Source: Deltaproteobacteria bacterium (GTDB lineage Bacteria; Myxococcota_A; Polyangia; JAAYKL01). From it: a DNA stretch of 62,370 nt. Every line of letters starts with the position of its first letter. Positions within the stretch are counted from its first letter, which is position 1. Under the pieces are notes generated by a model that saw nothing but the letters and a program-made list of their open reading frames with translations, was not told where the DNA came from and did no database searches. The position numbers and the translations under genes are program-made. The stretch lies in assembly GCA_030621515.1 (NCBI GenBank), contig JAUXHN010000001.1:1-62370 (forward strand), read 5' to 3'. Shown in pieces: positions 1,728 through 60,999 of the stretch.

Positions 1728-2760
1728 TTACCGCCTAATAGTTGCGACTCTGTTTACCTTGCTCACGGGCTTCATGGCCGTTCCCGCAATGGGGCAAACG
1801 CCGACGCAACTGGTCGTCGTGATCTCCACGGACACCACCGACGAGATCTTCACGGCGATAGCCCAGGAACTGCGCAGCTACGGCTTCGAAGTAACGGAAT
1901 CCAGAATGACCGTCGCGGGCGGTCAGGCCATCAAACTGGAGGAGATAGCTCGAAGGGCCGGTGCTATCGCCGCGGTGCGGGTGGACACGCCGGCACAGCA
2001 CGTGGAGATCTGGGTGGCCGATCTGGTAACGGGCAAGACCGTGTCGCGGCGCCTCGGCAGCATGGGCGAGGAAGATCTCAATCCGCCGCTGATAGGGCTC
2101 GCGACCGCCGAATTGCTGCGCGCCAGCCTGCTGGAGGTCCGGACGAAACACCGGACAAAGACAACCTCAGATGCGCCCCCCAAAGCCGTGGAGACAATGA
2201 TTGATAGCGAACCGGCAGGAACGGGGCACAGTGGACTGTGGTTCGCGCTGTCGGCGGGGCCCATCCTGTCTTCGTTCGACATGGCGCCGGGAATCTCGCT
2301 GATCGGCGCCCTGCGCCTGAGGTTCGAGGGACGCTGGGCAGTCGCCCTGAGCGGATCGGCTCCGGTTTATCCATCTCGTGGGGAGTGGGCGCAGGGATCC
2401 GTGGAGGTGAATCACGGCATCTTCGGCGCAGAGGCATCACTGCTTCTGGCGCAAGGAGGCGGCCTCCGCAGTGTGAGATGGGACATCGGTCTCGGGGCTT
2501 CCCTGGTCGTGGTGAAGTCCGTCGGAAGAGCCGAAAGAGGATACATCGACCGGGAGAACTCCACGGTTACGGGGCTCCCCCATCTTCGCACCGGCCTTTC
2601 GTTCGCGCTCACGGACTACCTGGATCTGCGCGCCGATCTGACAGGCGGCCCCACGTTTCACAAGATCGCTGTTGCAATTGATAACCGCGAAGTAACATCA
2701 ATGGGTTCCTTTTTTGTGCTCGCGATCGGCCTCGACATTCGGCTCCTGGAACTCCTGTGA
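1708..2760 (+). CDS. Secreted protein with putative outer-membrane beta-barrel C-terminal half
   Basis: Internal ATG of ORF 1657..2760 gives the signal peptide MHMVNSNYRLIVATLFTLLTGFMAVPAMGQ. The C-terminal half has alternating hydrophobic/Gly-rich strands (GLWFALSAGP..., GISLIGALRLRF..., GLSFALTDYLDLRADL). Start and family are uncertain. Confidence 0.45.
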   Translation: MHMVNSNYRLIVATLFTLLTGFMAVPAMGQTPTQLVVVISTDTTDEIFTAIAQELRSYGFEVTESRMTVAGGQAIKLEEIARRAGAIAAVRVDTPAQHVEIWVADLVTGKTVSRRLGSMGEEDLNPPLIGLATAELLRASLLEVRTKHRTKTTSDAPPKAVETMIDSEPAGTGHSGLWFALSAGPILSSFDMAPGISLIGALRLRFEGRWAVALSGSAPVYPSRGEWAQGSVEVNHGIFGAEASLLLAQGGGLRSVRWDIGLGASLVVVKSVGRAERGYIDRENSTVTGLPHLRTGLSFALTDYLDLRADLTGGPTFHKIAVAIDNREVTSMGSFFVLAIGLDIRLLELL

Positions 2761-2839
2761 GCCGCGAAAATGACTTGCGGCATCACAATAGGTGACACGC
2801 TGAATAACTGGCGACCTTGCGGGGAAAGGAACATTTAGA

Positions 2840-4297: not shown

Positions 4298-4308
4298 GAG
4301 TGTTAACA

Positions 4309-9046: not shown

Positions 9047-9120
9047 CACCCGTCAGCTACTTCCAGGTTGCAGAAAACTGCGAGATGTAACGATTTGGAT
9101 TAGGGTTCGCGAAAGAATAG

Positions 9121-9163
9121 GTTTCCGGATTTGCGGCGTCGAGGCGCCCGTCCGGTAAGGCAC
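9121..9163 (+). repeat. 43-nt intergenic element, copy B
   Basis: gtttccggatttgcggcgtcgaggcgcccgtccggtaaggcac matches copy A at 37 of 43 positions. Ends 52 nt upstream of ATG 9215. The listed ORF start at 9131 falls inside it and is probably not coding. Confidence 0.6.
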
Positions 9164-9214
9164 AGCGACAGCGTTTTCATCCGTTTTTTTTTTACAGCAT
9201 TGAGCTTGCGTCAC

Positions 9215-10891: not shown

Positions 10892-10895
10892 AAGC

Positions 10896-10916
10896 CCCGC
10901 GCATGAATTGCGCGGG
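10896..10916 (+). terminator. GC-rich hairpin just after the lipoprotein stop
   Basis: cccgcgca-tgaat-tgcgcggg: 8-bp stem starting 5 nt after stop TAG 10889-10891. No U-tract. Confidence 0.35.
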
Positions 10917-10949
10917 CTGGAGAAAGCGGAGCTTGGCTGCTCAATGCGT

Positions 10950-10970
10950 CCCGCGCAGGATCTGCGCGGG
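10950..10970. repeat. Palindromic element related to 10896-10916
   Basis: cccgcgcag-gat-ctgcgcggg: perfect 9-bp stem sharing the cccgcgca/tgcgcggg core with the hairpin 54 nt upstream. Confidence 0.4.
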
Positions 10971-11205
10971 TATTCAGCGCGAAGACTTGATCGTCATCCA
11001 AGGTCGAAGGTCGAAAATCTCGCCGTAGCCCGGAAGGGCGAAGCCCTTTCCGACACGAAGTGGCGCATTTCTGGCCGCGGGATTTATTTCCGCGGTGCTG
11101 GCGCAGGATCTTTAGAGGACGTTTTGACGTCTGTCCTGCGTCGGCGGGCGGGCACGGGGACCCGCCCCCCTACGATCAAAAACGACCGCCATAACCGGGA
11201 TGGGG

Positions 11206-11868
11206 TTAAAGCCGGTCATCGATGAGGTCGATGATCTCCAGGAGGGTGTACATCTCTCCGTCCAGCAGGTATGTGGGCGTCTGCCTGATCCCCTTTTTTC
11301 TCGTGTCCTTGAAAACGCCCTGCACCATGTCGACCGTTTCGCTTTCGTACAGGCAAGCATCGAACGAGTTTGCGTTGAAACCCATCTCGCGGGCAGTATC
11401 CTCGATGAAGGTCTTTCTTTTTGGCCCGGCAAAGGGTCTCGGATTTTGCATCACTCGATCATTCCATTCCCAGAACCGCCCCTCTTTCAAAGCGCAGAAC
11501 GCCGCCCTCGCCATGGCGCAACTGCTACGGCGCCTTTCCTTGTCGTTGGGCACACACGGCATTCTCGCGTAGTCGTGACGAACGAGCCGAACCTCGTCGA
11601 GATAGGATCTCATGGCTATTCTCAGGCGCCTGTGCGCTTGTGGACAATGGGGGCATTCATAATCGGTATACTCGTGGATCGTAATCACCGGTTTTTCCGC
11701 CCCGATCCAGGGATACCCTTGCTCCTCCAGGCCGCGATGCGCCTCGTCGTATCCGTACAACCATGCCCGGGATCCCCAGCACTTCTGGTGAGAAATCCAT
11801 GCGGCCGATGCGATCAAGACCAGGATCACAACGATAATCGCTACCCTTTTCGGAGTGATCTTTCGCAT
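11206..11868 (-). CDS. DsbA-family thiol:disulfide oxidoreductase (membrane-anchored)
   Basis: Thioredoxin-fold active site 'YECPHCPQAH'. N-terminal anchor MRKITPKRVAIIVVILVLIASAAW. A GTG at 11889 would overlap the upstream stop (GTGA); ATG 11868 is preferred. Confidence 0.75.
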   Translation of the reverse strand: MRKITPKRVAIIVVILVLIASAAWISHQKCWGSRAWLYGYDEAHRGLEEQGYPWIGAEKPVITIHEYTDYECPHCPQAHRRLRIAMRSYLDEVRLVRHDYARMPCVPNDKERRRSSCAMARAAFCALKEGRFWEWNDRVMQNPRPFAGPKRKTFIEDTAREMGFNANSFDACLYESETVDMVQGVFKDTRKKGIRQTPTYLLDGEMYTLLEIIDLIDDRL

Positions 11869-11885
11869 TTTCACAGCTCTTATCC

Positions 11886-13406
11886 TCACTCATCCACGCT
11901 CTGAAGACCCAGGCCCAGAACTATCTCCATTCCGTCCCAGACGCGGTAGAGCCCACCGGCCCTGTTCTCGACGAATGAATCGATCACATCATCCCCATCC
12001 TCGTCGATCGCCGTGCAGGGTATCAGGACGTCAATCATCGACCAGGCCTCCTCGAGCGCCGGTTGCACACAGGGCAACGACCCCGCCGTGATCTCGTAGT
12101 CGCCACTGGTCCCCTTGATCCGCAGCATCCCCAACCTCGCCTTCAACCCGGTCAGGGGCAGGTGCTCCCTGGCTTCCACGTATCCCCATGTGCCCAGATC
12201 CTCCATGGACAGCCGCCCCGCCGGTCGCGGTCGCGTGTCGAGCTGGTACTCGTCCGTGAGCTCGCCCGGGCCGATCATCTGCGCCACATCCACCCCCTCC
12301 ACGAGAAGCGACAGCTTTCCGTAATCGTCGAGTATTGCCGCAAGTATGCTCTCCAGACGAGAGGCACGGGAAATGATGACCCCCCTGTCCAGCTCGGTGG
12401 CGAGCGGAGACATCTCGATGCCCGACCGCACGCCGGCCGGTTCGCAGCGAAGGTTTGCCCAGCCGAGCAACCGCGTCATCTCCTGGCAATCCAGGACGGC
12501 CTGCCGCGCATTGATGCTCGAGTCACACCCCCGTGGGCGGAAATGCCCCCGACAACGACTCGCGCCAGCGCACTTCCCCTGCGCGCAATCGCCCATGCAT
12601 ATCCCGTCGCAGGCACCCTCCTCGCTTACCGGAACCCGGCACAAACCCTCGCATTCACCTTCGCAGTCGAAAGGGGTCCGGGAGTCGCAAACTCCGACGC
12701 ACAGGCCCTCGCACTCACCATTGCAACGGCCGAGTGAGGTATATCCGGCGCAAGTCGTGTCACACTGGCCGAAGCAACGGCCCGGGCACTCGACACCGCC
12801 GTCGTGCTCGCAAGACCCGATACAACCCACAAGGCATTCGTCCCCCGCAAGGGCCGCTTCCCGGTAACAGACGCCCGTACACAAATTGACATTCGATCCG
12901 CTCACCCGCGCGATGCATTCTCCCTCGCAAAGACCTGTGCAGGAACCCTGCTGCCCGGTGCTGCAATCCGGGGGCACATAGAGATCGCTTCCCTCCTCGC
13001 ATACTACCTGGCGTTCGAGGGCGACCGAGGAATCGATCCAGCAACGCGGCCTCTCCATGGACACATGGATCTCGACTCCCGAAATCCCGAAGAGGCCCTG
13101 ATTGATCGCCGCCACCACATCCGCAACCGCCCCGGCGGAGAAACGCCCGTCCTCCGGAATCTCCACCCCGTACTGCTCGGCAAGCAAGGCCATATTGCTA
13201 TCAAAGGACTCGGCCGCGAGGCTGCCCCACTTGTCCAGCAGGTAGACCGCCTCCAGCGTCCCGTCCAGCCGCGGATCGCCCGTAATCGAAACGTCACCCT
13301 CGGACAGGAGCCCACAGGGGGCGCAGACTTCCAGCGTCTCCTCGCAGGAAACAGCCGCGAACAAGAGGAGCGCGAATACGGAAACGATTATCGCAGAGTA
13401 TTTCAC
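11886..13406 (-). CDS. Secreted cysteine-rich repeat protein (CxGxC ladder), hypothetical
   Basis: Signal peptide MKYSAIIVSVFALLLFAAVSC. Central ~150 aa hold >35 Cys with period-4 spacing: 'CTGLCEGEC', 'CLVGCIGSC', 'CPGRCFGQCDTTC', 'CNGECEGLCVGVC', 'CEGECEGLC', 'CDGICMGDCAQGKC'. Confidence 0.6.
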   Translation of the reverse strand: MKYSAIIVSVFALLLFAAVSCEETLEVCAPCGLLSEGDVSITGDPRLDGTLEAVYLLDKWGSLAAESFDSNMALLAEQYGVEIPEDGRFSAGAVADVVAAINQGLFGISGVEIHVSMERPRCWIDSSVALERQVVCEEGSDLYVPPDCSTGQQGSCTGLCEGECIARVSGSNVNLCTGVCYREAALAGDECLVGCIGSCEHDGGVECPGRCFGQCDTTCAGYTSLGRCNGECEGLCVGVCDSRTPFDCEGECEGLCRVPVSEEGACDGICMGDCAQGKCAGASRCRGHFRPRGCDSSINARQAVLDCQEMTRLLGWANLRCEPAGVRSGIEMSPLATELDRGVIISRASRLESILAAILDDYGKLSLLVEGVDVAQMIGPGELTDEYQLDTRPRPAGRLSMEDLGTWGYVEAREHLPLTGLKARLGMLRIKGTSGDYEITAGSLPCVQPALEEAWSMIDVLIPCTAIDEDGDDVIDSFVENRAGGLYRVWDGMEIVLGLGLQSVDE

Positions 13407-17386: not shown

Positions 17387-18625
17387 TTACACCGAAGGGG
17401 GATCGACCACCTTGCCCATGAAGATCAGGGCGCCGGAGTGGTGGTCATGGATGACAAAAATAAAGGGTCGGTCGATCACGATCTCTTCGGGCATGGATGC
17501 TCCAGCATCGATCTCTACAGAGGTGGCCGCGGCTGCCTCGGTCCCTTCCTCGTCCACGCGGATCCAGCTCTTGTGCTTCACCTCGCTGATAAACAGCTGT
17601 TGGTCCGGGCTCATTTTGCCGAAGTCGGCCTCCCCTTCAATGAACGCCACCTCCATGCCCAGGGTTGAAAGCACATCCACCAGGCTTGTATCGAACTCCA
17701 TTTCGAACCGGGGCATCTTGAACGTGACATCGCTCTCGTAGAGCCCGTCGAGGGTGGACCGCCAGATCTCCGGGGTCAGCTCCGCCGCCACGTCGTCGAG
17801 GGCAACCTCCTCCTTCGGCAGCAGGATCGTCATCGCAAAGTAGCCGCTGCCATAGGTCAGGGAGAAGGCCTGGAACCGCTCCTGATCGACGCGGGAGATG
17901 AGGCCGTCGCTGTCGAGCACCATCATCTTCACCGTCTTGTCGGTCTCGTCGTCGATATGGAAGGTTTCGTCGTAGGTCGCTTCCTCATCGAATTTACAGG
18001 TCCAGTCCGCCTTGAAATAAACCGCATTTATCAGGAACATCACGGTGGCAGGGTCGATGGGACTGTCGACGATATCGGTGATCTTGCCGCCGGTGTGCTC
18101 GGAGACCCAGTCGTTGATCGTGCTCGACGCGGACGGCGCTGCGAAGTCAAGAGACGAGACCACCGCGGCGAAGTAGGCCTCGCAGGTGGCGATGAACTCA
18201 TCAAACACCGTGAATTCGTCGCTGTACCAGATAGAGTTGGCGATCTCCATGGTCACCTTTCTGTCCATACCGATGAGCAGATCGATCAGACTCCGATAGT
18301 TCTCATTGATCTGATCGCTGGTCAGATCTCCAAAGCTCAGCGCCTCGCGCATCCCCTCCTCGGTGCTTCCCAGTGCGCCGTTGTAGGCCATGCCCAGCGC
18401 CATGGAGACGCTCAACGGCGAGATGAATAGATTGTCCCCATCCGACTCGTCAATGACCGCGTCGAAGAGCTCGAGACCGAAACCGTTGCTCGCCGTGACC
18501 AGAGCCTGCTCCTCGGCGGTCAGCGGGCGCGGCGGCTCCTTGACCGAATCGCAAGCGCCGATTATCAGTGTCACCGTGGCGATCGCCGCAACCACGAGAA
18601 CCCGGTGATTTTTCCGTGTATCCAT
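17387..18625 (-). CDS. Serpin (serine protease inhibitor), lipoprotein-type signal
   Basis: 'SPLSVSMALGMAYNGA'. Inhibitory hinge 'EEGTEAAAATSVEIDAGASMPEE'. C-terminal 'IDRPFIFVIHDHHSGALIFMGKVVDP'. N-terminal VVAAIATVTLIIGAC. Confidence 0.85.
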   Translation of the reverse strand: MDTRKNHRVLVVAAIATVTLIIGACDSVKEPPRPLTAEEQALVTASNGFGLELFDAVIDESDGDNLFISPLSVSMALGMAYNGALGSTEEGMREALSFGDLTSDQINENYRSLIDLLIGMDRKVTMEIANSIWYSDEFTVFDEFIATCEAYFAAVVSSLDFAAPSASSTINDWVSEHTGGKITDIVDSPIDPATVMFLINAVYFKADWTCKFDEEATYDETFHIDDETDKTVKMMVLDSDGLISRVDQERFQAFSLTYGSGYFAMTILLPKEEVALDDVAAELTPEIWRSTLDGLYESDVTFKMPRFEMEFDTSLVDVLSTLGMEVAFIEGEADFGKMSPDQQLFISEVKHKSWIRVDEEGTEAAAATSVEIDAGASMPEEIVIDRPFIFVIHDHHSGALIFMGKVVDPPSV

Positions 18626-20481: not shown

Positions 20482-21230
20482 AATCGACCATGGCTTTTGC
20501 CCTGATTACATCGATAGCTTTTTTTGCGCTTGGGTGCTCTCCCACACCTGTCGAGATCAAAACGGAGAAGGAGAACTACATTCTGGACGAGGCCGGCGCC
20601 AAGGATCAGATCAAAGTCTCTATCCTGGATGCGGATGGCGACAAGATCACCGAAGGCCTGGAAGTGGTCTATTTTTCGACTGATACCAAGATCATCAGGC
20701 TTGGTCAGCAGGACGGCACAATAGAGGCCAAGGCCTCCGGCGAGGCGAACGTGGAGATCGAAGTGGTCGGCACCAAGATCAAGCTCGACGTTCCCGTCAG
20801 GGTAAAGATCCCCAGCGCCATAGAGCTGTCTCACGAGAAACTCCGACTGTGGACCGGTCAGGTCAAGAAGAATGTCTGCTCCTGGGTTCAGAGCGAAAAG
20901 GGCGCCTACATCGAGGGCATGATACCCGAGTGGGCAAGCGAGGACCCCACCATCGTTTCGGTGGAGCAGATACAGGACCCCGCGAACGACCCCAAGCGGA
21001 ACCGCAGCTACGTCAAGCTCGTGGGGGTAAAATCGGGCGATACTTACATCCTCACCAGCTTCCGACACCTCTCCAGGTCCATCCGCGTTCGCGTCTACGA
21101 CGAGGACGAAGAGGTCACGCTGGCCGGGCAACGACTCGGAAAAAAGGCGCCGGAAGGCGAAGAGGAAGAAGAAGTGAAGAAGAAGTCAAAAGAAAAAAAG
21201 AAGAAGAAGTGGAAGAAGAAGGAGAAGTAA
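20478..21230 (+). CDS. Lipoprotein with bacterial Ig-like (Big_2-like) domains and poly-Lys/Glu tail
   Basis: ATGA overlap with the upstream stop. MKSTMAFALITSIAFFALGC lipobox. 'VVYFSTDTKIIRLGQQDGTIEAKASGEANVEIEV' and 'WASEDPTIVSVEQ...VKLVGVKSGDTYI' resemble Big_2. Tail EEEEEVKKKSKEKKKKKWKKKEK. Confidence 0.6.
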   Translation: MKSTMAFALITSIAFFALGCSPTPVEIKTEKENYILDEAGAKDQIKVSILDADGDKITEGLEVVYFSTDTKIIRLGQQDGTIEAKASGEANVEIEVVGTKIKLDVPVRVKIPSAIELSHEKLRLWTGQVKKNVCSWVQSEKGAYIEGMIPEWASEDPTIVSVEQIQDPANDPKRNRSYVKLVGVKSGDTYILTSFRHLSRSIRVRVYDEDEEVTLAGQRLGKKAPEGEEEEEVKKKSKEKKKKKWKKKEK

Positions 21231-24200
21231 CGACTCCTCTTTGCCACCCACCCCCACCTGAGCACACCCACAATCACGGAATCGCGGCTCGACCCCCTCG
21301 CTCAGGGGGATCGATTGTCCCTGCCCTGCGTCTGCCTCGACAGGTTGTTGCGCCTCGGTGAGAGCGATCTGCACCCTCTCGATATCCGCAGCGCCCATGG
21401 GCGCCCGGGCGTGAGCTTCAACCGTATATTCGCCGAGCTCGTCATACTCGTAATATATAGTCCCGGCATCGTGGAAGGACGGATCGGCTCCGTCGCCGAA
21501 ATCGATCTCCAGGCTTTCCAGGGGACCGCCGGTGTACTCCACGTCCAGGATGAGATATCTGTCCGTGGTTATGGCCTGGACGGACAGGTCGATTCGTTCG
21601 GAAACCCACCACATCAACGACTCGAATAGCTCCTGACGCCCGGCCGTCAACGGGGTGGCGCTGCCGACCCTCTCGAGGCCGAAGCTCAACAGCGCCGCAC
21701 GATACTTGAGCGTCTCCATCTCCATGTACTCGCCGTAGCCGATATAAGGGTCAAAGAGCACGCCCATTGCCCCGACTCCCCCCCCAAAAGGATCGCCGTA
21801 CATCTGCAGGAACGGTTCAAGGAAAATATCCGGAAGCCCCGGCCCCATTATCAACCCGATCTCACCTGCCATGACCAGATCCCCGATTCCATCAGTCTCG
21901 GGACCGATGTCGAGGGGCATACCCACCATGGAGGGGGCCCCGTCGATGGGGTGTACCAGATAGTCGTCGAGATCCACCACATCCTGGGTGTACTGATCGT
22001 AGAGAGGGAAGGATCCGCCCGTCATGCCTCCCATGAACCCGTGGATCCTCGAGTGCTCGTTTTCCCTCAAGGGCCCCTGCCCAGTAATGACGATGTTTCC
22101 GCCCTTCGATGCGTATGTAGAAAGGGCATCGAAGGTGTGCCTTGCGATAGTGCCCTTGTGGGACACCTGGTCGTCACCGGTGAAAACCAGCACCACAAAA
22201 TGCCGTAGAAGCTCTTCGAGTGTGGGCGCGGCGATCCCATCGTGTAACTGGTACACCGTGTAGGCCAGTCCCGCCTCCTGCGCCATTTCCGTGTACAAAT
22301 CGATCAACGCTTTATCGTCGGGATGGCGAAAGGACATGTCCAGCAGCATGAGCTCGTATTCCAGTGGCGGAAACACGCGATAGTGGTAGGGGATGGTCAC
22401 TTGTCGAGCCCCTGATTCGAGCAGCACGCGCCCGGTATACTCCCCGGCCGGAGCGTCGAGTGGCGCCTGTAGGGCCACGGTCAGCGCTCCATCCGTCAGC
22501 ACGATCGTATCTCCGCTCGTCGGAGCCACCTGGGGATCGAAGGAATCCTGGAGGTGATGCCACTCCAGTTCCACATCGCCGTCAGACGCGAACGGGCCGC
22601 CGATCTGCACCGTTGCCGCAAAGAGCGTCCCCGCATGTCCTTCCCCAAATGAAAAGGCGCAAGGGATCGCAAAAGACAGCGCATCGGACGCCTCTGCCAG
22701 ATCCATCAGTCCCGCGCCGATATCGAGTATCCGGAAGTATCGCTTGAGGGGCAGACGCGCGCTCCCAGTAAGTGTGGACTGCACCTCCCGAGGATCGAGG
22801 TCCGGATATCTCTGTCTTACCAGCGCAGCAGCGCCTGCCACGTGGGGAGCGGCCATGGATGTCCCCGACTTCAAATCCCAGGGATCTCCGCTATTTCCGA
22901 CCGAATGCGCCTGCGCGGACAGCACCCTCACCCCCGGCGCCACGATATCCGGCTTGAGCACAGGGTCGTCCGTGGGGCCACGCCCTGAAGATCCCGCCAT
23001 GGCCTCCATCGAGCCGGCACTGAAGTACGAATGCATCCCATCGTTGATAGTCGCTGTTGCGCCGGGATTGTCGATGACCCATTTTTCCAACTCGATCCCG
23101 TCGATGTTCCCGATCTGAACCGCCGGGATCGGAACAGAAACGCCGCCCATTGTTATTGGCTCGGCGTGGTCCACGTTATTGAAGATGATCACCGCCGGCG
23201 CTCCTGCCAGGTATGCGTTCGTCACCTTTGAGGAGAACGTGCAGTTTCCCCTTTCGATGAGCGCTATGGCTCCGTCGAAGGCGTCCCACGGGAAGGCGAG
23301 GCATCCGTCGTTGTTCGTTCCCCCGCCTGCCGTTCTGGCCGAGACAACCTGAAGCGGCCCGACCGGATCGTCATCGAAGGAAGGGCTGATATTGCCCTTG
23401 ATGGCCGGCATACCTGCCAGGTTGGCGGGCACCGGATCCGGAGTAATCACTTCCACGAGTCCAGCGAAGTACCGCCCCGCGTCGAAAGATCCGACGGTCA
23501 ACACTTCGAGCAGGGTGCCCGGATGGGATATCGTACCCGGTCCACCGCCTTCGTTTCCCGCCGCGAAGACCACCACGGCGCCCGCGTCGATTGCCGAGGT
23601 ATACACCACTGACGCCGCCGTACCTTCCACCATGTCGTCGGGCCCGCCCCAGGAGCACGAAATGACGTCAGCCCCGTCGGCAACAGCGTCCTCGAAGGCG
23701 GCCATGAGTTCCGGATCGTAAGCTCCTGACTGGCCCGATTCGGCGGTATAGAAGACCTTGTAATTCATCAGGTAGGCACGCGGGGCCACACCGCTCACCG
23801 TCACCGGCGTACCGGAAAGGTCGAAGACCGTATCCAGATTACCCGCCACGATACCCGCGCAATGGGAGCCGTGACCTCTGTGATCCACCGGATCCTCAGT
23901 ATCCTTTTCCAGATTGACGGGATCGCCCGATCGGAAATACGCCCGCGCCGCTATGACCTTTGCGGTGGTGAATGCGGTTTCTCCCAGCGGATATCCCCCA
24001 GGCATCGAAAACTGTGCGGGATCGAAGAACGGATTGAGAATATCTATCCCCGTATCGATGACCGCAACGCGTACGCCCTCCCCTGCGAACTCCTGCCCTC
24101 CGAGGCTCTGCCAGTAGTCGCTCACGCCGATCATGTCCAGGGTCGCGTCCAGGGTGGGGGTGTAGAGGATCGTATCCGTTCGCGTTACTGATTTCACACC

Positions 24201-24563
24201 GGGAAGGCGCGCCAATTCCTCCCTGGAAACGCCGGATACTACAAGGCCGTTGAAGAGTATCGAGTACTCATGTTCTACATTAGCTTCCGGCCAGTTCCCA
24301 TGGAGTTCCTTGCGGAATTCGCCATGGCTCTCATAAAGGTGCCAGAGACATTTTTGGGCCTGGTCGCTACTGAGATCGAGCTTGCCGCCCCGCAATCGGG
24401 GAACGGATATCGACCCTTCACGGACAGCCGCCACCAGCGACGGCCGGTCCATTTGAACGATCCATCGGGCGGGTTTTGCGCTCGGATTATCCGCCGCGAC
24501 TATCCGTGGCGCGAGGAGCGCCAGCGCCGACAGGAGACCGCATGTAATTACTTTGTTCCACAT
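21186..24563 (-). CDS. Secreted S8 subtilisin-like serine protease with PA-domain insert and long C-terminal region
   Basis: Catalytic triad motifs 'VRVAVIDTGID', 'HGSHCAGIVAG', 'SGTSMAAPHVAGAAALV'. PA-like insert 'GAIALIERGNCTFSSKVTNAYLAGAPAVIIFNN'. Start set at ATG 24563 (MWNKVITCGLLSALALLAP signal). C-terminus 'DCGCAQVGVGGKEESLLLLLLPLLLLFFF'. Confidence 0.9.
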   Translation of the reverse strand: MWNKVITCGLLSALALLAPRIVAADNPSAKPARWIVQMDRPSLVAAVREGSISVPRLRGGKLDLSSDQAQKCLWHLYESHGEFRKELHGNWPEANVEHEYSILFNGLVVSGVSREELARLPGVKSVTRTDTILYTPTLDATLDMIGVSDYWQSLGGQEFAGEGVRVAVIDTGIDILNPFFDPAQFSMPGGYPLGETAFTTAKVIAARAYFRSGDPVNLEKDTEDPVDHRGHGSHCAGIVAGNLDTVFDLSGTPVTVSGVAPRAYLMNYKVFYTAESGQSGAYDPELMAAFEDAVADGADVISCSWGGPDDMVEGTAASVVYTSAIDAGAVVVFAAGNEGGGPGTISHPGTLLEVLTVGSFDAGRYFAGLVEVITPDPVPANLAGMPAIKGNISPSFDDDPVGPLQVVSARTAGGGTNNDGCLAFPWDAFDGAIALIERGNCTFSSKVTNAYLAGAPAVIIFNNVDHAEPITMGGVSVPIPAVQIGNIDGIELEKWVIDNPGATATINDGMHSYFSAGSMEAMAGSSGRGPTDDPVLKPDIVAPGVRVLSAQAHSVGNSGDPWDLKSGTSMAAPHVAGAAALVRQRYPDLDPREVQSTLTGSARLPLKRYFRILDIGAGLMDLAEASDALSFAIPCAFSFGEGHAGTLFAATVQIGGPFASDGDVELEWHHLQDSFDPQVAPTSGDTIVLTDGALTVALQAPLDAPAGEYTGRVLLESGARQVTIPYHYRVFPPLEYELMLLDMSFRHPDDKALIDLYTEMAQEAGLAYTVYQLHDGIAAPTLEELLRHFVVLVFTGDDQVSHKGTIARHTFDALSTYASKGGNIVITGQGPLRENEHSRIHGFMGGMTGGSFPLYDQYTQDVVDLDDYLVHPIDGAPSMVGMPLDIGPETDGIGDLVMAGEIGLIMGPGLPDIFLEPFLQMYGDPFGGGVGAMGVLFDPYIGYGEYMEMETLKYRAALLSFGLERVGSATPLTAGRQELFESLMWWVSERIDLSVQAITTDRYLILDVEYTGGPLESLEIDFGDGADPSFHDAGTIYYEYDELGEYTVEAHARAPMGAADIERVQIALTEAQQPVEADAGQGQSIPLSEGVEPRFRDCGCAQVGVGGKEESLLLLLLPLLLLFFF

Positions 24564-24632
24564 CTGCAAAGCCGAAGTATAATGCTTTGCCGACAATTTG
24601 GCATTAACCATGACTACTTTAAAGGAAATGAT

Positions 24633-25139
24633 ATGAGCAAGACCCTGTGGGCTCCATGGAGGATGGACTACATCCTGGGACCGAAATCCGGCAAATGCGT
24701 GTTCTGCGAAGCGTGCGAGGGCGGCGAAGAGCGCCGCGAGGAGAACATGGTTCTGGCGGCGTGCCCGGAGGCTTTCGTGATAATGAATCGCTATCCGTAC
24801 ACCCACGGTCACATCATGGTCGTCCCCACCAGACATTTGTCCAACCTGGAGGATATGACACCAAAGGAGCAGTCCGTTTTCTTCGAGCTGGTGGTAAATG
24901 CGCAGGCCGCCCTCCGGGAAGCCCTGAAACCCGGAGGCCTGAATATGGGAATGAACCTGGGGAAAGCTGCTGGCGCGGGAATCGCGGATCACCTTCACAT
25001 TCACATCGTCCCTCGCTGGGACGGCGACACCAACTTCATGCCCCTGCTGGCGGACGCGAGGGTCATGCCCGAGCACATGGACGAAACCTACAGGACGCTG
25101 GTTCCGTTCTTCGAAAAGCTGGGATCCAACCAGTGCTGA
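24633..25139 (+). CDS. HIT-family nucleotide hydrolase/phosphorylase
   Basis: 'MSKTLWAPWRMDYI...CVFCE'. Histidine triad 'DHLHIHIVPRW'. A perfect TATAAT at 24577-24582 lies upstream. Confidence 0.85.
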   Translation: MSKTLWAPWRMDYILGPKSGKCVFCEACEGGEERREENMVLAACPEAFVIMNRYPYTHGHIMVVPTRHLSNLEDMTPKEQSVFFELVVNAQAALREALKPGGLNMGMNLGKAAGAGIADHLHIHIVPRWDGDTNFMPLLADARVMPEHMDETYRTLVPFFEKLGSNQC

Positions 25140-43171: not shown

Positions 43172-44422
43172 TTATTGGTTCATGGACTCGAGGAACTCCT
43201 GGTTTGACTCGGTCCGCCTGAGCTTATCCAGCAGAAACTCCATGGAGTCAATAACATTCAATGGATGCAGAAGCTGCCGGAGCAACCATACGCGTTGAAG
43301 TACGAAATCCTCGAGAAGAAGCTCTTCCTTCCTGGTGGCGGAGCGGTTGATGTCCAGGCACGGGAAAATCCTCTTCTCCATGAGCTTGCGATCCAGGTGT
43401 ATCTCGCTGTTGCCGGTTCCCTTGAACTCCTCGAAGATCACCTCGTCCATGCGTGAGCCCGTATCCACGAGCGCCGTCGCGATAATGGTCAGGCTACCCC
43501 CACCCTCGATGTTGCGGGCGGCGCCGAAGAACCTCTTGGGCTTGTGAAGGGCGTTGGAGTCGACACCACCCGAGAGGATCTTGCCGGAGGGTGGAACTAC
43601 AGTGTTATAGGCGCGAGCGAGACGCGTGATGGAATCGAGCAGGATGATCACGTCATGGTTGTGCTCGACAAGGCGCTTGGCCTTCTCGATGACCATCTCC
43701 GCAACCTGCACGTGGCGCTGGGCCGGTTCGTCAAACGTGGAGCTGATGACCTCTCCGTCTACGCTCCGGGCCATGTCTGTCACTTCCTCGGGGCGCTCGT
43801 CGATGAGCAGCACGTGGAGTTTGGCCTCGGGGTGGTTTACAGCAACGGCGTTGGCGATATCCTGGAGAAGCACCGTCTTGCCTGCCCGGGGCGGGGAAAC
43901 GATGATGCAACGCTGGCCTTTCCCTATGGGACAGAGAAGATCGATGATCCTGGTGGAGTCGTTTTGGTTTGCCGGCGTCTCGAGGTTGTACTTCTCGTCA
44001 GGATAAAGAGGCGTGAGGTTATCGAACAGAATCTTGGTCCTGGCTACCTCTGGCGGGGCGTGGTTGATGGTCTCCACCTTGAGCAGGGCGAAGTACCTCT
44101 CGGACTCCTTGGGCGGCCTGATGTTGCCGGACACGATATCGCCAGTGCGCAGGTTGAACCTGCGAATCTGCGAGGGCGAGACGTAAATGTCGTCGGGCCC
44201 CGGAAGGTAGTTGTAATCAGGCGCTCGCAAAAAGCCAAACCCGTCGGGGAGCGTCTCGAGGACCCCCTCGCCGGTGATTGCGCCGTCCTTGTCGGATTGG
44301 GCCTGCAAGAGAGCGAAGATTAACTCCTGCTTGCGCATTCCGGCGGCGCCGTCGATCTTGTAGTCGTCTGCCATTGCGGTCAGCTCGGAGATGGGTTTTT
44401 TCTTGAGATCCCTCAAATGCAT
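43172..44422 (-). CDS. rho: Transcription termination factor Rho
   Basis: '[23 protein letters not shown]'. RNA-binding 'GFGFLR'. Walker A 'SPPRAGKT'. '[25 protein letters not shown]'. Confidence 0.95.
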
Positions 44423-44660
44423 GTCATTTCCCTTTTTGGTTCTTTGTCTAAGAAACTCTTGTGATACCGCTGTCTCGCGGTTTTTTGGAATTGCCTGTAA
44501 GCCGGGGAGACTTGTTTTTCTTCTGTCTTGCTGCTTATCTTGACACTTGTGTTGCGGTGTCGTTCTTTTAAACCTGGAGCGGCAAGAACGATGATTAATT
44601 CTGCGAGTTATTTTAGTCCCGACCCTTTGGTTGTCAAGTATTATCATACGGAGATAGACA

Positions 44661-45155
44661 ATGACCATCGATGCGGCACGAATCGCCATATTGTCCATGC
44701 TGATTGTTTCCCTCACGTGCGCAACGGCGTGCAAGGGTGATAAGAGCGCGGTGGATGCGCCGAAGGACCCTGCCAGATGCAAGCTCCTCGATCTCGGCGA
44801 GGCTACGGATTTCATGTCCTCGGGCAAGCCGGTCCCCGATGATCAGCTCGTCGGCATGGCGGGAATTGCCGACCCCAAGATGCTGGTCTGGCAGGATGCC
44901 AAAACGAAGCGGGTCCATTACGTCACCAAGATCATGGGCGCCGGCGGCAAGCTCCTGTACACCGAACAGGTGCCGGCGGGCGAGAAACCGCGAATTCTCG
45001 CGAATTTCAAAGGGACCATCAGATTGTGGAAGAATATCCCCGGGAAAGACGCTCTTGATATGGCGAAAGCGTTGAAGAAGGAATGGGGGACGGAGATCGA
45101 TATGAACGATACCTACCTGCTCACCGGCGGCGTCAAGCCGGACGGTTGTAAGTAA
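44661..45155 (+). CDS. Hypothetical lipoprotein
   Basis: [32 protein letters not shown] lipobox. Confidence 0.5.
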
Positions 45156-45194
45156 TAGCATTTACACCTTCTTTTAAGGGAGGGTGTGATAAAA

Positions 45195-45276
45195 GGCCCT
45201 GAAAGGGGCCAGGGGTCTATGTCCTTCCCATACCCGGGGCGTTGCCCCGGGCTGGTATGTAACGCCCCTTCGGGGC
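45195..45276. terminator. Three GC hairpins in a convergent intergenic region
   Basis: ggccc-tgaaag-gggcc (45195-45210); cccggggc-gtt-gccccggg (45233-45251, 8 bp); gcccc-ttc-ggggc (45264-45276, 7 nt beyond the giant-gene stop). Confidence 0.4.
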
Positions 45277-56831: not shown

Positions 56832-57707
56832 CTACTGCATGGGCGATCCAACCGCTATCTCCGCCAGGCGCGCATTCGCCGCCGAGATATAGTCCATTCG
56901 CGTCTTTTGATTGGCGGTTTCGAGGAACTTCTCGAGCCATATTTTGGCGTTCTCTTTATTTGTGTATGAGTACGACCAGCCGAGGCTGAACATGGCATCT
57001 TCCATATCCGGCTTCATCTCGAGCGCCTGCCTGAACTCCACGACAGCCTTCTCGTACTCCTTTTTTTCGGAAAGGACCGTACCTAGCCTGTGATGCAACA
57101 CCGCCAACTCATCGCCGCGACCTTCGAGAGCCTTGATGCCCTCACGAAGCACCTGCTCCCCCTGCCCGAGGAAACTGTAATCCAGATACAGGGAACCGAG
57201 TTCGCGATAGGCGTCGAAGAATTTCCCGTTGACCTTCAATGAATCGGTGTACTTCTGCAACGCCTCCTCGGGGCGGTCCATCTCCTCGAGAACCCTGCCG
57301 AGGCGGTAGTGCGCCTTGTACAGTTTCGCATCGAGCTCAATGGTGCGCTTCAACTCCGTTTCTGATTGCTCGTACTGCCCCATCCATTGATATACCTCGC
57401 CGAGCTGATAGTGATATATCGCCAATTCGTCGTTGAGTGCGATGGCCTTCTGCAGGTGTCTGGCGGCCTGCTCGAACTCCTTGGTTTCGATATATACAAT
57501 CGCCAAATTGTGGTGCGCCTTCTCGTTTTCCGGATCGAGGCTCACGGCCTTGCTGCAATCCCTGATTGCCTGCGGAAATAGCTTCCTGCGATGGTACTCC
57601 ACACACTTGTTCATCATCTCGACTGAGTGGACGTGCTCGCGACTACATTTCCCACCAGTAAGCAGGGTAGCGAGTGCGCAAACAACCAAAATCAGCTTCT
57701 TACTCAT
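56832..57707 (-). CDS. TPR-repeat lipoprotein
   Basis: AGGAG RBS. MSKKLILVVCALATLLTGGKC lipobox. Canonical TPRs ('AHHNLAIVYIETKEFEQAARHLQKAIALNDE', 'AHYRLGRVLEEMDRPEEALQKY'). Confidence 0.75.
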   Translation of the reverse strand: MSKKLILVVCALATLLTGGKCSREHVHSVEMMNKCVEYHRRKLFPQAIRDCSKAVSLDPENEKAHHNLAIVYIETKEFEQAARHLQKAIALNDELAIYHYQLGEVYQWMGQYEQSETELKRTIELDAKLYKAHYRLGRVLEEMDRPEEALQKYTDSLKVNGKFFDAYRELGSLYLDYSFLGQGEQVLREGIKALEGRGDELAVLHHRLGTVLSEKKEYEKAVVEFRQALEMKPDMEDAMFSLGWSYSYTNKENAKIWLEKFLETANQKTRMDYISAANARLAEIAVGSPMQ

Positions 57708-57851
57708 GGAGTTGCTCCTGTTCTGTAGAGACACGTAATAGCAGGCAATTTTAGAGAATAGACGGGGGGATGTAAACCCCATCAAACGACGTTACGTACT
57801 ATTTTTTCAAAAACCAATCGAACCGTATTCTTTTTAACAAGAACAGCATCT

Positions 57852-58589
57852 TCATGAGCCCAGCTTCACTAGCTTTCCGCTCTTGTCCTGCTTGTATCCC
57901 CTGGGAAGGATCGCATCCACCTTCTTCTTGTATCCCTGAGTTCCCCATCCCAGATTCACGAACGCCTCGATGACCTGGTTGCGTACCCGGATGCTCTCGT
58001 CTTCGCACATGGTCTCCAGGAGGGGTTCCTTGGACAGCTCGTCTCCATGCTGCGCCAGAGCGATCACCGTCTGGAACCTGACGGTTTCGTCGACGTCCTT
58101 GAGAAAAGGAATCAACGCCTCGACGACTTCTTTGCCCGGAATCTCCGCGAGGGCCATGATGGTCTGGATCTTTCGGTCCGGATTTCTCTCATATTCCGTG
58201 TCGAACTCGCTCAGAACGTCCAGCATCTCCGTCTTGTAATCCTCCGGCGAAATGATGTTCCGCAACACTCGCTGCACCCAGTTGACCGACTCGGCGGATC
58301 GCAGCGCTCTGGAAATATGTTTGATCGCCGGCTGGCCGATCTCGATGAGCGCCTCACTTACCCACTCTTTCTCCTTCTCATCTTCGCTCGAGGGTTCCGC
58401 GTTGACCCCGAACCTGGCCAGCATTCCTCGTATGGCCGTCTCGTCCCCTTCCCTGGCGAAATCAATCACTTCGGCAAGGGCAATCTGGCGGTAGTCCTTG
58501 GGGGTGAACTTGTTGTTGGCTCGCTTGATACGTTTTTCGACCTTCCACAGGCGCCTCTTTTCTTTGGAGAAAAAATCTAAGATACCCAT
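57852..58589 (-). CDS. HEAT/PBS-lyase-like repeat protein
   Basis: Helical repeats 'VVEALIPFLKDVDETVRFQTVIALAQHGD' and 'ETMCEDESIRVRNQVIEAFVNLG'. Starts 9 nt after the upstream stop. Confidence 0.6.
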   Translation of the reverse strand: MGILDFFSKEKRRLWKVEKRIKRANNKFTPKDYRQIALAEVIDFAREGDETAIRGMLARFGVNAEPSSEDEKEKEWVSEALIEIGQPAIKHISRALRSAESVNWVQRVLRNIISPEDYKTEMLDVLSEFDTEYERNPDRKIQTIMALAEIPGKEVVEALIPFLKDVDETVRFQTVIALAQHGDELSKEPLLETMCEDESIRVRNQVIEAFVNLGWGTQGYKKKVDAILPRGYKQDKSGKLVKLGS

Positions 58590-58598
58590 GCTGAAGCC

Positions 58599-59825
58599 CT
58601 ACCCGTTTTCCGAACCGTTTTCTTGCTCTTCATCTTCACCCGTGAGAACGCCGATAAGCTGGTTGATCCTGTAACCCAGGCCGCCTACTTCCGCCGACTT
58701 GACGTCAAATCTGTACTCGAACTCGCCATTGATGACCTTGAGAAGACCTTCCTCAATCTCCACCACCGGCCGAAGGAAGTGTTTCCCGAGCAGCATACCA
58801 ACCACTATAACCAACAGCGACGCGATCCCCATCATGACGAGGACCAGGAACAGGCACGCTCGATGATCCGACGCGTCATCCACCGACCCCATGATCACGT
58901 TTGCAATTCGATCCTTTTTCTCCGAATTCATGGACGGCAAGACCATGGCAAGGTGATTCGCTCCCTCGATGTCGAGCGCGAAGACCTCCGAGGGACGACC
59001 GCTGCCGAGGGCGCCGGCGACCTTGTCGGAAGCTACATTCTTGAGCTGCTGATCGAGGCTCTGGCGTGCCGTGTCGGTCTCAAAAGAAGAGCTGTAAATA
59101 CTGTCCGCCACGAGCACTGCCACATCCAACCCGAGCTTCTCCTTCTTGATCTTTGCGACGCCGTTGGAGACCTCGAATCCGATGACCAGGGCTCCGGCCA
59201 CGTCATCCCCCACCCAGATGGGCGCGGCGGCCATCTCCAGTAGACCGCTGTTCATCAGGGCGCAGTACTTGTCATCCTTTGCGGCTGATTTGCCCAGGGG
59301 TGAGTTGTCGACGGACCACAGTGAGTAGGTGGCTTCCCCGTCCAGGGCTCTCTTTACCACCTTGATGGCGCCTGAGACATTTCTCCCCGCAGGGCATGCG
59401 TTGGGGGTTGTATTTCGGGCGATGACGACCCCGTTGCGATCGGTGATGAAAACCAGCTCCGGTTTCTTGTCTCCCCGCGCTACCCACAGCTCCGCATACA
59501 TCTCGACCGCCAGGACCCCTGCCCTGAACCATTCCTTCCTGATCTTGGATTCAATTTGTGCTTCGGTCTGGCCCTCTTCGGGTGCTATTTCCACAGGCGC
59601 GAACGCCTGGGTGACATCCTTGGTCATCGCCTGCTTGCGAACATCGAAAAGAAGTTCGTAACCACGAAGCGCCTCTGAACGAGCGAACAGGCTGCCGGTT
59701 GTTCGGAGCTGCTCCTCAATGCGCGTTATTGTGTTTTTTTCCATGTTGGAACTCATCACAAAATACGAAACCAGCCCGAAAACAAGGACCACCAAAAGAT
59801 TCGGCAGAATGATTTTTGCTCGCAT
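58599..59825 (-). CDS. Membrane sensor-like protein: periplasmic domain + TM + HAMP, no output domain
   Basis: Start ATG 59825 (MRAKIILPNLLVVLVFGLVSYFV). ~300-aa extracytoplasmic region, second TM (LFLVLVMMGIASLLVIVVGMLLG), HAMP 'FLRPVVEIEEGLLKVINGEFEYRFDVKSAEVGGLGYRINQLIGVL', then ~15 aa to the stop. Confidence 0.65.
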   Translation of the reverse strand: MRAKIILPNLLVVLVFGLVSYFVMSSNMEKNTITRIEEQLRTTGSLFARSEALRGYELLFDVRKQAMTKDVTQAFAPVEIAPEEGQTEAQIESKIRKEWFRAGVLAVEMYAELWVARGDKKPELVFITDRNGVVIARNTTPNACPAGRNVSGAIKVVKRALDGEATYSLWSVDNSPLGKSAAKDDKYCALMNSGLLEMAAAPIWVGDDVAGALVIGFEVSNGVAKIKKEKLGLDVAVLVADSIYSSSFETDTARQSLDQQLKNVASDKVAGALGSGRPSEVFALDIEGANHLAMVLPSMNSEKKDRIANVIMGSVDDASDHRACLFLVLVMMGIASLLVIVVGMLLGKHFLRPVVEIEEGLLKVINGEFEYRFDVKSAEVGGLGYRINQLIGVLTGEDEEQENGSENG

Positions 59826-59952
59826 AGGGTAATCCCCTTCTTCCCGGGTCTCCGCGACCCCCATTCTTTCTGATTTCTGGTTGTGATTCCGAGTAAAATT
59901 GCCTATCACCAGCTAGTGATCAAGTCAAGGTTGAGAGACGGAAGGAGATGTG

Positions 59953-60999
59953 ATGAACGCTGCTTTTTTGTTTGACGAAAGCTTCAAGAACCATGCTTGC
60001 CAGCACTACCATCCGGAGCGTCCGGAGCGATTGGACGCAGTGGTGGAAGGCCTCGAAAAATCAAAAGCGTGGGGACCGGCGTACCGCGTGGAACCCAGAC
60101 CGGCAAACGACGGGGAACTGGAGCGCGTACACGACCCGGGTTACGTGGAAACGACAAAGAAAACCCTGGAGAACCGGAGCGGCGGGAACCTAGATCCCGA
60201 CACTTTCTTTTCCGAGGGAACCCGGCATGCCGCTCTTTGCGCCGCCGGAGGGGGAATAGACCTGGTGACAGCGGTCCACGAAAGGAAGGCAGAATGGGGA
60301 TGGGCCATTGTGCGCCCTCCGGGCCATCACGCGAGCATCTCGGCGCCCGGCGGTTTTTGTATCTTCAACAATATCGCAGTGGCTGCGGCATCCCTGCTCG
60401 CGAGGGAAGATGTCGAACGCGTGGCCATCTTCGATTGGGACGTTCATCACGGAAACGGCACTCAGGACCAATTCTGGGATAATCCCGACCTCCTCTTCAT
60501 GTCCATGCACCAGTGGCCTCATTATCCCGGCTCCGGATTGTCGGATCAGATCGGCGGTTCACAAGCCCGAGGCAAGACCGTAAACTTTCCGTTCCCCGCA
60601 GGAATGAGGGACGGTGATTTTCTTGCTGTAATCGATGATGTGCTCACGCCCATGCTCGGTTCATTCCGGCCGGACCATATCCTGGTGAGCGCGGGCTTCG
60701 ACACCCACAGAAACGACCCACTGAGCGGCATGGAAGCGACCAGCGAGTGCTTCGGCCGGATGGCGGCAAGGATCAAGGGCCTGGCAGACGAGATCTGCAA
60801 AGGACGCCTGACTCTCTTTCTCGAAGGAGGATACGATCTGGATGCACTTACGTCTTCGGCGAGTTTCGTGGTACGGGGCATCGACGGAACCCTTGAAGAT
60901 CACAGCATTACTCGGGAATCCACCCCTAGCTCTGCGGGTAGTGAGATAATCAAATCGACTCTGAATGAGGTTGTGCCTCATTGGCCGGATATATTTTAG
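59953..60999 (+). CDS. Histone deacetylase-family (AcuC/HDAC-like) deacetylase
   Basis: 'HPERPERL', 'VRPPGHHA', 'FDWDVHHGNGTQ', 'VSAGFDTH', 'LEGGYD'. Confidence 0.9.
   Translation: MNAAFLFDESFKNHACQHYHPERPERLDAVVEGLEKSKAWGPAYRVEPRPANDGELERVHDPGYVETTKKTLENRSGGNLDPDTFFSEGTRHAALCAAGGGIDLVTAVHERKAEWGWAIVRPPGHHASISAPGGFCIFNNIAVAAASLLAREDVERVAIFDWDVHHGNGTQDQFWDNPDLLFMSMHQWPHYPGSGLSDQIGGSQARGKTVNFPFPAGMRDGDFLAVIDDVLTPMLGSFRPDHILVSAGFDTHRNDPLSGMEATSECFGRMAARIKGLADEICKGRLTLFLEGGYDLDALTSSASFVVRGIDGTLEDHSITRESTPSSAGSEIIKSTLNEVVPHWPDIF

Follow-up and report, generated by a model that had tools for sequence, protein, structure and literature searches.

A short-form MXAN_5187-family sensor and a HEAT-repeat protein adjoining a TPR lipoprotein and a probable GltI-type giant in uncultivated Myxococcota

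The stretch of DNA examined in this work (the window) comprises 62,370 nucleotides (nt) of contig JAUXHN010000001.1 from a "Deltaproteobacteria" genome assembly (GCA_030621515.1) and carries, in one series, genes for a membrane receptor (the sensor), a HEAT-repeat protein, an exported tetratricopeptide repeat (TPR) protein and a giant cytoplasmic TPR protein (Table 1). This report describes the four products, their relatives and the regulatory signals around them. The arrangement is tentatively read as two two-gene modules that have been joined, in which a HAMP–HEAT receptor pair is linked to a scaffold of the GltI type, known from the gliding machinery, by input or by co-regulation.

The gene coordinates of an initial annotation were reproduced by an open reading frame (ORF) check of the window, as were its spacers of 9 nt (sensor–HEAT) and 144 nt (HEAT–TPR), the third spacer (TPR–giant) measuring 23 nt rather than 24 nt. 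Its start codons (59825, 58589, 57707 and 56808) are backed by homologue alignments and promoter positions and were kept over longer ORF starts. The nature of the products was also borne out, namely a sensor with two transmembrane (TM) helices that stops shortly after a C-terminal HAMP domain and has no output module, a HEAT-like repeat protein, a periplasmic TPR lipoprotein (signal peptide and invariant cysteine agree with this, the lipobox of the window protein being non-canonical) and a giant confined to the cytoplasm.

Table 1. Features of the four-gene locus and its borders in the window (coordinates refer to the first letter of the window as position 1; AF2, AlphaFold2).
Feature	Coordinates	Strand	Basis or remark
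Sensor, membrane receptor of 408 residues (predicted TM1, dCache, TM2, HAMP, acidic tail)	58599..59825	-	Short form within the MXAN_5187 family
HEAT (PBS-lyase type) repeat protein, cytoplasmic, 245 residues	57852..58589	-	Pfam; PDB matches to alphaRep/HEAT proteins; adjacency
Exported TPR protein, 291 residues, probable lipoprotein	56832..57707	-	TPR families, signal peptide, invariant Cys
Giant cytoplasmic TPR protein, very probably GltI/AgmK type, 3841 residues	45283..56808	-	Similarity to a Lujinxingia litoralis protein; architecture
C-terminal non-TPR domain of the giant, 305 residues	45283..46200	-	AF2 model, profile search
Predicted promoter P1, upstream of the sensor gene	59900..59928	-	Motif conservation across Group A
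Predicted promoter P2, internal, upstream of the TPR lipoprotein gene	57748..57779	-	Consensus scan and conservation across Group A
Terminator-like hairpin and T-run, 73 nt past the stop codon of the giant	45195..45210	-	Consensus match only
HDAC-family deacetylase gene, divergent from the sensor gene	59950..60999	+	Pfam Hist_deacetyl 3e-89

The AF2 model of the sensor (pLDDT 87.7, built on 97 homologues) begins with TM1 and a stalk helix (residues 2-66), followed by a double-Cache fold (about 69-318), a helix in which TM2 continues into the first HAMP helix AS1 (322-365), the connector (366-380), the second HAMP helix AS2 (381-395) and a disordered acidic tail of 11 residues (398-408). The stop codon comes 12 residues past the HAMP domain, and the HEAT gene begins at the 9-nt distance given above. 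With a stalk helix and two PAS-like alpha/beta modules between two TM helices, the modelled extracytoplasmic part has the make-up of a dCache domain; Foldseek retrieved the dCache ligand-binding domains of Tlp3, PctA, DctB, TlpA and PscC (E 1e-8 to 1e-6, Foldseek probability 1.0), and relatives of the sensor give weak Pfam matches to dCache_1, dCache_3 and Cache_WalK. A sequence search of the PDB with the sensor returned no match. The periplasmic domain contains conserved Cys and Gly/Pro positions whose spacing does not appear to be that of the amino-acid-binding dCache motif.

HAMP domains are characterized by a proline near the start of AS1, a glycine at the start of the connector, and a glutamate together with a GxLxxxFNxM-like motif in AS2. 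In the sensor the corresponding residues are P353, G367 and E379 with the stretch EVGGLxYRINQL / EVGGLGYRINQL, and across the 97 sequences the first two never vary and E379 is conserved to 90% or more. The sensor has no Pfam match at E<=0.01 and thus none to HAMP (PF00672), a family weakly matched by three of 23 relatives (best E 0.008), and in NCBIfam its HAMP region aligns weakly to that of WalK and BaeS. The assignment is therefore based on the motif residues, the place after TM2, the weak NCBIfam alignments and the model; the predicted layout and the signature residues are those of a HAMP domain, at a score below the Pfam gathering cutoff. Neither Pfam nor NCBIfam detected a kinase (HisKA with HATPase_c), methyl-accepting chemotaxis protein (MCP) or GGDEF output domain in the sensor. 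The HAMP domain is the most conserved part of the protein, with 26 of 51 columns conserved at 90% or more vs 50 of 290 in the periplasmic domain (short-form group, see below), a pattern that would fit a HAMP surface which is itself a binding site.

The protein search returned 117 relatives of the sensor, about 77-80 of which have the same short form (400-410 residues, 41–89% identity, all from Myxococcota or "Deltaproteobacteria" metagenome-assembled genomes, MAGs), stop at the same point and end in the same acidic tail. The distant relatives (28-36% identity over about 99% of the query, E 1e-30 to 1e-41) are about 475–505 residues long and carry an extra C-terminal domain of about 70 residues, the "MXAN_5187 C-terminal domain" NF041621 of NCBIfam family NF041620; matches to these entries are given by the relatives P0093, P0090, P0116 and P0111. 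The window sensor, which ends at residue 408 right after HAMP, matches neither entry in NCBIfam. Since its TM–Cache–TM–HAMP body is homologous and the 70-residue domain is absent, it is a short form of the MXAN_5187 family, and by the same comparison the output-less form is a derived or minority state within a family that usually has the NF041621 domain. PDB and Pfam sequence searches with this C-terminal domain gave no match. MXAN_5187 has no published function: a full-text literature search on the name was without match, a search on neighbouring locus tags yielded nothing useful, and the gliding-gene supplements hold no HAMP, HEAT or MXAN_518x entry.

It could be argued that the sensor is simply a truncated or frameshifted histidine kinase or chemoreceptor, an idea to which its weak HAMP-region alignments with WalK and BaeS in NCBIfam might lead. 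This explanation was rejected and its probability is negligible: 77 homologues of 400-410 residues share the same end and acidic tail, a conserved gene starts 9 nt further on, and no kinase or MCP remnant follows.

Gene neighbourhoods were compared in a set of 80 loci (designated by L numbers) obtained from a scan of GTDB species-representative genomes and compared with the window proteins by tblastn. Group A comprises the loci with short sensors (>=41% identity) and Group B those with long sensors from Polyangiales and Sandaracinaceae MAGs. Loss of the C-terminal sensor domain coincides with adjacency to the giant. Two distant Polyangiales sensors of 403 residues (L032 and L042, ORFs at about 10001..11210), which have a low-complexity end, also lack the MXAN_5187 domain and have no adjacent giant; this could reflect independent loss or an assembly frameshift.

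The HEAT protein is recognized by three Pfam families, HEAT_2 (3.3e-12, 46.9 bits; cutoff 27.7), HEAT (26.9 bits; cutoff 23.5) and HEAT_PBS (24.5 bits; cutoff 20.9), and its PDB sequence search matched alphaRep designs and HEAT proteins. Homology searches with it reached the close clade only and no cultured organism. Of the informative Group A loci, 14 of 15 have this gene immediately beside that of the sensor and in the same orientation, as do 54 of 62 Group B loci. The N-terminal motif, given as MG(I/L)(F/L)DF(L/F) for the window protein, has the form MG(L/I/F)(F/L)D(F/L) across both groups; we take it, as a lead only, to resemble the membrane-binding N-terminal helix of PspA/Vipp1. On the other side of the sensor, an HDAC-family gene is divergent and adjacent in seven of 14 Group A and 24 of 60 Group B loci, and also stands next to the sensor in L006 and L007; it may belong to the sensor module. 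NCBIfam gave no match for the HEAT partners or for the HDAC-family gene. The HDAC–sensor pairing is also seen in Polyangiaceae loci devoid of a HEAT gene.

The giant has no signal peptide and is built of TPRs up to a C-terminal domain of about 300 residues that contains none. It is 33% identical over 2795 residues to a 4109-residue protein from Lujinxingia litoralis, a cultured bacterium of the Bradymonadales. The Lujinxingia locus (L090) encodes a TPR protein of 1105 residues (GltD-sized), GltE-like (NF033758, 1.9e-46), CglF/GltF-like (2e-16) and GltG-like (7.7e-118) proteins, then an AgmX/PglI C-terminal-domain protein, a TPR protein of 309 residues and the giant of 4109 residues; the scores of the Glt-like proteins lie under the NCBIfam curated cutoffs and the alignments are full length. 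This gene order matches that of the G1 cluster of Myxococcus xanthus, gltD-E-F-G-H-I-J (PMC3169522), and the order gltD-E-F-G–TPR (282–309 residues)–giant also occurs in L091, L093 and L095. GltI has been reported as a cytoplasmic protein of 3822-4132 residues with a TPR array and a large helical C-terminal domain (PMC11761067, PMC3169522), and has been proposed to scaffold several Agl–Glt units through binding sites for GltG-FHA and GltJ-GYF (PMC11761067). The window giant has this architecture (more than 3000 residues, cytoplasmic TPRs, helical C-terminal domain) and stands outside a G1-type cluster, no glt or agl genes having been found elsewhere within the 62-kb window by family scans of its proteins. 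Altogether it is very probably a GltI-type protein, M. xanthus GltI (MXAN_4863) having been compared by description and the sequence link being provided by the Lujinxingia protein.

The C-terminal domain of the giant is modelled by AF2 with high confidence (pLDDT 94.5) as a helical fold with one three-stranded sheet. Its 305 residues have 78 homologues in a word index that seems to cover proteins of up to 534 residues, and in these the domain always lies at the extreme C-terminus. An exhaustive profile search with the domain returned 1852 cluster representatives at E<=1e-30; among the best 150 of these it closes long TPR proteins, mainly of two size classes (about 3300–4166 and about 1760–1815 residues), and occupies the extreme C-terminus in essentially all complete proteins. 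One member of the smaller class (L092, 10001..15448) is a Ser/Thr protein kinase–TPR fusion in the neighbourhood of an unrelated nuo operon. The PDB sequence search with the domain gave no match beyond TPRs, and Foldseek found weak matches to M48 Ste24/ZMPSTE24 and M56 BlaR1 (best E 0.036, TM-score 0.36). An active M48/M56 metalloprotease was rejected in view of these weak fold matches and of the absence of HExxH, the position reading H-L-x-Y-Y, which leaves a remote fold resemblance; going by the model, either a gluzincin-like fold that has lost its activity or a new fold is conceivable.

The product of the gene that precedes the giant is composed of TPRs behind an N-terminal signal peptide, with a cysteine that is invariant in 14 loci. 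A lipobox of the form [LVI][ASTVI][GAS]C closes the signal peptide of bacterial lipoproteins. The window protein has the non-canonical LLTGGK-C, with Lys at -1. Canonical lipoboxes occur among its orthologues in other lineages, as LSG-C in L091; those of L090 and L088 read STG-C and AGN-C. With its signal peptide and invariant Cys, the product is a probable lipoprotein. It is the most conserved of the four proteins (59-98% identity in Group A), being 74–76% identical in loci where the sensor is 41–56% identical, and its cysteines past the signal peptide, including those of the motifs KCSREHV and RDCSKA, are kept across loci. In glt clusters a TPR gene with a product of 282-309 residues lies directly upstream of the GltI-like giants. 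The corresponding protein of L088 is 40% identical to that of the window and those of L090 and L091 are 24-25% identical (tblastn/BLASTP), aligning from the lipobox Cys, whereas in L093 and L095 the match is by position, size and TPR content only. On the strength of these alignments and positions, the window protein is regarded as the orthologue of the TPR protein of about 282-309 residues whose gene precedes the GltI-like giants. AgmV (MXAN_4864/65) was rejected as its counterpart, these ORFs being held false in M. xanthus (Text S1, PMC3169522), and with GltE and Tgl the window protein gave generic TPR-level scores only (42.6 and 55 bits vs cutoffs of 225).

Two putative promoters divide the locus. 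P1, located between the divergent HDAC-family gene and the sensor gene, has the -35 element TTGACT and the extended -10 element TGaTAGGCA, and its motif CCTTGAC(T/G)-N14-TGnTA can be aligned in 12 of 13 Group A loci in DNA that is otherwise unalignable. P2, a sigma-70-type site recovered in the window by a consensus scan, reads GGG-TTTACA-N17-TAAAAT. All 14 Group A loci that were compared have the sequence TTTACA-N17-TAnnAT at the same place between the HEAT and TPR genes, in the context GGGTTTACAT in 13 of them and GGCTTTACAT in L011, and save for this site and the AGGAG and ATG that follow it the HEAT–TPR spacer is unalignable in Group A. The TPR–giant pair would therefore have a promoter of its own. 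A scan of the window found no terminator-like site between the HEAT and TPR genes, so that read-through from P1 is possible. Upstream of the TPR genes of L088, L090 and L091, no P2-like promoter was found.

The four genes are syntenic in related genomes. Besides the window, 13 species-level MAG loci have the same order, at sensor identities down to 41% and with Group A spacers of 9–352 nt (sensor–HEAT), 114–180 nt (HEAT–TPR) and 23–325 nt (TPR–giant); a recurrence of this kind is far beyond chance. In Group B there is no TPR gene or giant within 10 kb of the sensor. A Polyangia contig covered by L082 and L093 gives an extended picture: the sensor and HEAT genes run forward, and behind them a pair of OMP_myx_plus beta-barrel genes and ftsY read the other way; after some 2.7 kb of sequence without assignment come a GltC-like gene (NF033756, 6e-76), GltD-, GltE-, GltF- and GltG-like genes, a TPR gene (300 residues), a giant (3480 residues), a Ser/Thr kinase gene, tsaE and carB. 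The two OMP_myx_plus (TIGR04565) genes, which together with ftsY are convergent to the HEAT gene (L082 12329..14376, minus strand), could be GltA/GltB-like. In Polyangia, gltC is reached about 7–9 kb downstream of the sensor–HEAT pair. These beta-barrel genes and ftsY come after the HEAT gene in about 40 Group B loci, about 10 of which have GltC-like sequence at the 3' end, and on two further contigs sensor and giant lie 20–30 kb apart on the same strand. The clade of the window lacks the intervening genes (two outer membrane beta-barrel genes, ftsY and gltC–gltG) at this position, and hence the two pairs abut. On the simplest account, the sensor and HEAT genes first stood at the edge of a glt neighbourhood, and the stretch of about 18 kb from HEAT to TPR was then deleted or moved in the ancestor of the clade.

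The initial annotation had proposed that the four genes form one tight operon encoding a single envelope-spanning assembly, in which all three repeat proteins (HEAT, TPR lipoprotein and giant) receive the HAMP signal together through protein contact. This proposal agrees with the common strand, the short gaps, the lack of a terminator-like site between HEAT and TPR, the order conserved in 14 loci and the coincidence of C-terminal domain loss with adjacency to the giant. It is nevertheless improbable, as strand and spacers suit a single operon but a conserved internal promoter is predicted in the 144-nt gap, the modules are separable, the sensors of L032 and L042 also lack the C-terminal domain with no giant nearby, and the TPR–giant pair stands in glt clusters without any sensor. 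An indivisible operon was therefore given up: P2 is present in 14 of 14 loci and P1 in 12 of 13, and the halves are apart in other lineages and in L015. The statement that no described system has this composition requires revision for one half of the locus, with a giant of the GltI/AgmK type and a TPR lipoprotein that is its constant neighbour in glt clusters; the sensor of the other half is uncharacterised. Of the proposed transmission from HAMP to repeat scaffolds, signalling by protein contact survives as what appears to be the most economical reading, HAMP being the most conserved part of the sensor; the constant partner, however, is the HEAT protein and not the giant. An envelope-spanning context for the locus is plausible.

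The reading favoured here, with a confidence somewhat short of even, is that of two modules which have been joined. Module 1 would consist of the MXAN_5187-family receptor and the small cytoplasmic HEAT protein, expressed from P1. The dCache domain of the receptor may bind a periplasmic or envelope ligand, and the conformational state of HAMP would be read by the HEAT protein, docking on the HAMP bundle and the acidic tail, with no enzymatic output; both the ligand binding and this contact are inferred. The N-terminal amphipathic motif may keep the HEAT protein at the membrane. Module 2 would comprise the exported TPR lipoprotein and the GltI/AgmK-type scaffold, be driven by P2 and end at the terminator-like hairpin; it would represent the last two genes of the G1-type clusters of the Glt system (gliding transducer, bacterial focal adhesion). 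The position of Module 1 at the glt edge in Polyangia, along with its abutting Module 2 in the clade of the window, suggests that the GltI-type scaffold receives an envelope or external input from the sensor–HEAT pair or is co-regulated with it, and a coupling of this sort is plausible.

Several observations weigh against such a coupling. The juxtaposition in the clade of the window is probably one ancestral event, in which case its recurrence in 14 loci is inheritance and not independent evidence. In Polyangia the modules are separated by a housekeeping gene, ftsY, so that their proximity may be plain conserved synteny. Even inside the short-form clade the sensor–HEAT pair is separable, since in L015 (50% identity; 9086..12828) the short sensor and HEAT genes are followed by ddl (D-Ala-D-Ala ligase), SDR and malic enzyme genes, with no TPR gene or giant after them, and in glt clusters of the Bradymonadales type neither a sensor nor a HEAT gene occurs within 10 kb. 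Moreover, the HAMP–HEAT and HEAT–GltI contacts are conjectural, and the window giant is related to M. xanthus GltI indirectly, through the Lujinxingia protein.

These points lend weight to a second explanation, according to which the modules are functionally unrelated and share a neighbourhood through descent alone. The sensor and HEAT proteins, with the HDAC-family protein as a possible third member, would then be an independent envelope-sensing system, and the TPR–giant pair would serve only a Glt machinery encoded elsewhere. In favour of this, a conserved promoter precedes each module, the modules lie apart in L015 and in Bradymonadales and are 7-30 kb distant in Polyangia with ftsY between, and the most widely shared neighbours of the sensor are the HEAT and HDAC-family genes and not glt genes. 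On the other hand, the order of the four genes persists at sensor identities as low as 41%, although what lies upstream changes (the HDAC-family gene in seven of 14 loci, other neighbours in L003), and dozens of Polyangia species have the pair next to genes for outer membrane beta-barrels and to the glt cluster. Because of the separate promoters, L015 and the sensor-free Bradymonadales clusters, this explanation is considered a serious possibility, nearly as likely as a functional link between the modules.

A stronger version of the joined-module reading is conceivable, in which the HAMP bundle switches binding of the HEAT adaptor, the HEAT protein tethers or releases the GltI-type scaffold, and assembly of a focal-adhesion-like machine is thereby controlled; the compact unit would have arisen after loss of the C-terminal domain of the receptor and of gltC–gltG from the locus. 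Taken as a whole, this version is rather unlikely. An inside-out or anchoring role is a less likely option still: by analogy with LapD–LapG, the receptor would be a membrane anchor and not a ligand sensor, its dCache domain might bind the TPR lipoprotein or a cell-wall component, and its state would be set from the cytoplasm by the HEAT protein on HAMP. The strong conservation of the TPR lipoprotein and the conserved periplasmic positions of the sensor, whose spacing we presume to differ from that of amino-acid-binding dCache domains, are consistent with such an anchor; the widespread occurrence of sensor–HEAT pairs with no adjacent TPR lipoprotein is not. The HAMP-containing LapD is reported to act by inside-out protein recruitment (PMC4359373), which provides a precedent.

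The remainder of the window is occupied by housekeeping genes (gap, pgk, tpi, lon, lepB, atpB, prfA, rho), and tRNA and Rfam scans of the window were empty. The rho ORF (43172..44827, minus strand) has about 140 residues preceding the Rho_N domain and contains a near-consensus promoter-like site (TTGACA-16-TAAAAT, 11/12; 44610..44637, minus strand), so that the true rho start is probably further downstream; an overlapping ORF of 175 residues (44634..45161) is without family match, NCBIfam included. A bacterial serpin (Pfam Serpin 1e-107; 17387..18625, minus strand) is encoded about 2.5 kb from a subtilase of 1296 residues with a PA domain (21186..25076, minus strand), which suggests a possible protease–inhibitor pair. 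At 432..5964 (plus strand) there is a one-strand series of genes for FecR-domain, unknown, FG-GAP-repeat and IgGFc-binding-domain proteins.

Of the large components of the myxobacterial focal-adhesion machine, GltI is the one least understood, and the sensor–HEAT pair, located at the glt edge in many Polyangia and against gltI in a widespread uncultivated clade, is a concrete candidate for an input to it. For the uncharacterised MXAN_5187 family, the locus offers a partner that is always the same and a setting in which its role can be tested, and it contributes a HAMP-terminated receptor from bacteria. It also points to the TPR lipoprotein of about 290–310 residues as a conserved but so far unnamed component of the glt clusters found outside Myxococcus. 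Should the modules prove unrelated, the locus is simply an annotated neighbourhood.

Among the closest known systems, GltI (AgmK, MXAN_4863) is also a giant cytoplasmic TPR protein with a large helical C-terminal domain (3841 residues in the window giant), and homologues of the window giant end gltD-E-F-G clusters in Lujinxingia and Polyangia; unlike GltI, the window giant is not beside gltG or gltJ, and ahead of it stand the sensor, the HEAT protein and a TPR lipoprotein for which M. xanthus has no named counterpart. With the MXAN_5187 family the sensor shares a homologous N-terminal part of 400 residues (TM, dCache, TM, HAMP) and the same downstream HEAT partner, but not the defining C-terminal domain of about 70 residues. 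PctA, Tlp3, TlpA and DctB have the same double-Cache extracytoplasmic fold followed by TM2 and HAMP, and continue into an MCP signalling domain or a kinase where the window sensor stops. In LapD–LapG of Pseudomonas fluorescens, the output of a HAMP receptor is likewise reported to be partner recruitment and not catalysis (PMC4359373), although LapD signals inside-out through degenerate GGDEF-EAL domains that bind c-di-GMP, domains which the window sensor does not have. An earlier case of a protein ending in HAMP is Af1503 of Archaeoglobus fulgidus, the prototype HAMP structure, a TM protein with no cytoplasmic output domain that is reported also to lack a periplasmic input domain (PMC3585426). 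The archaeal protein is unrelated in sequence to the window sensor and has no known HEAT partner, whereas the sensor combines a HAMP end with a dCache input and a conserved HEAT neighbour.

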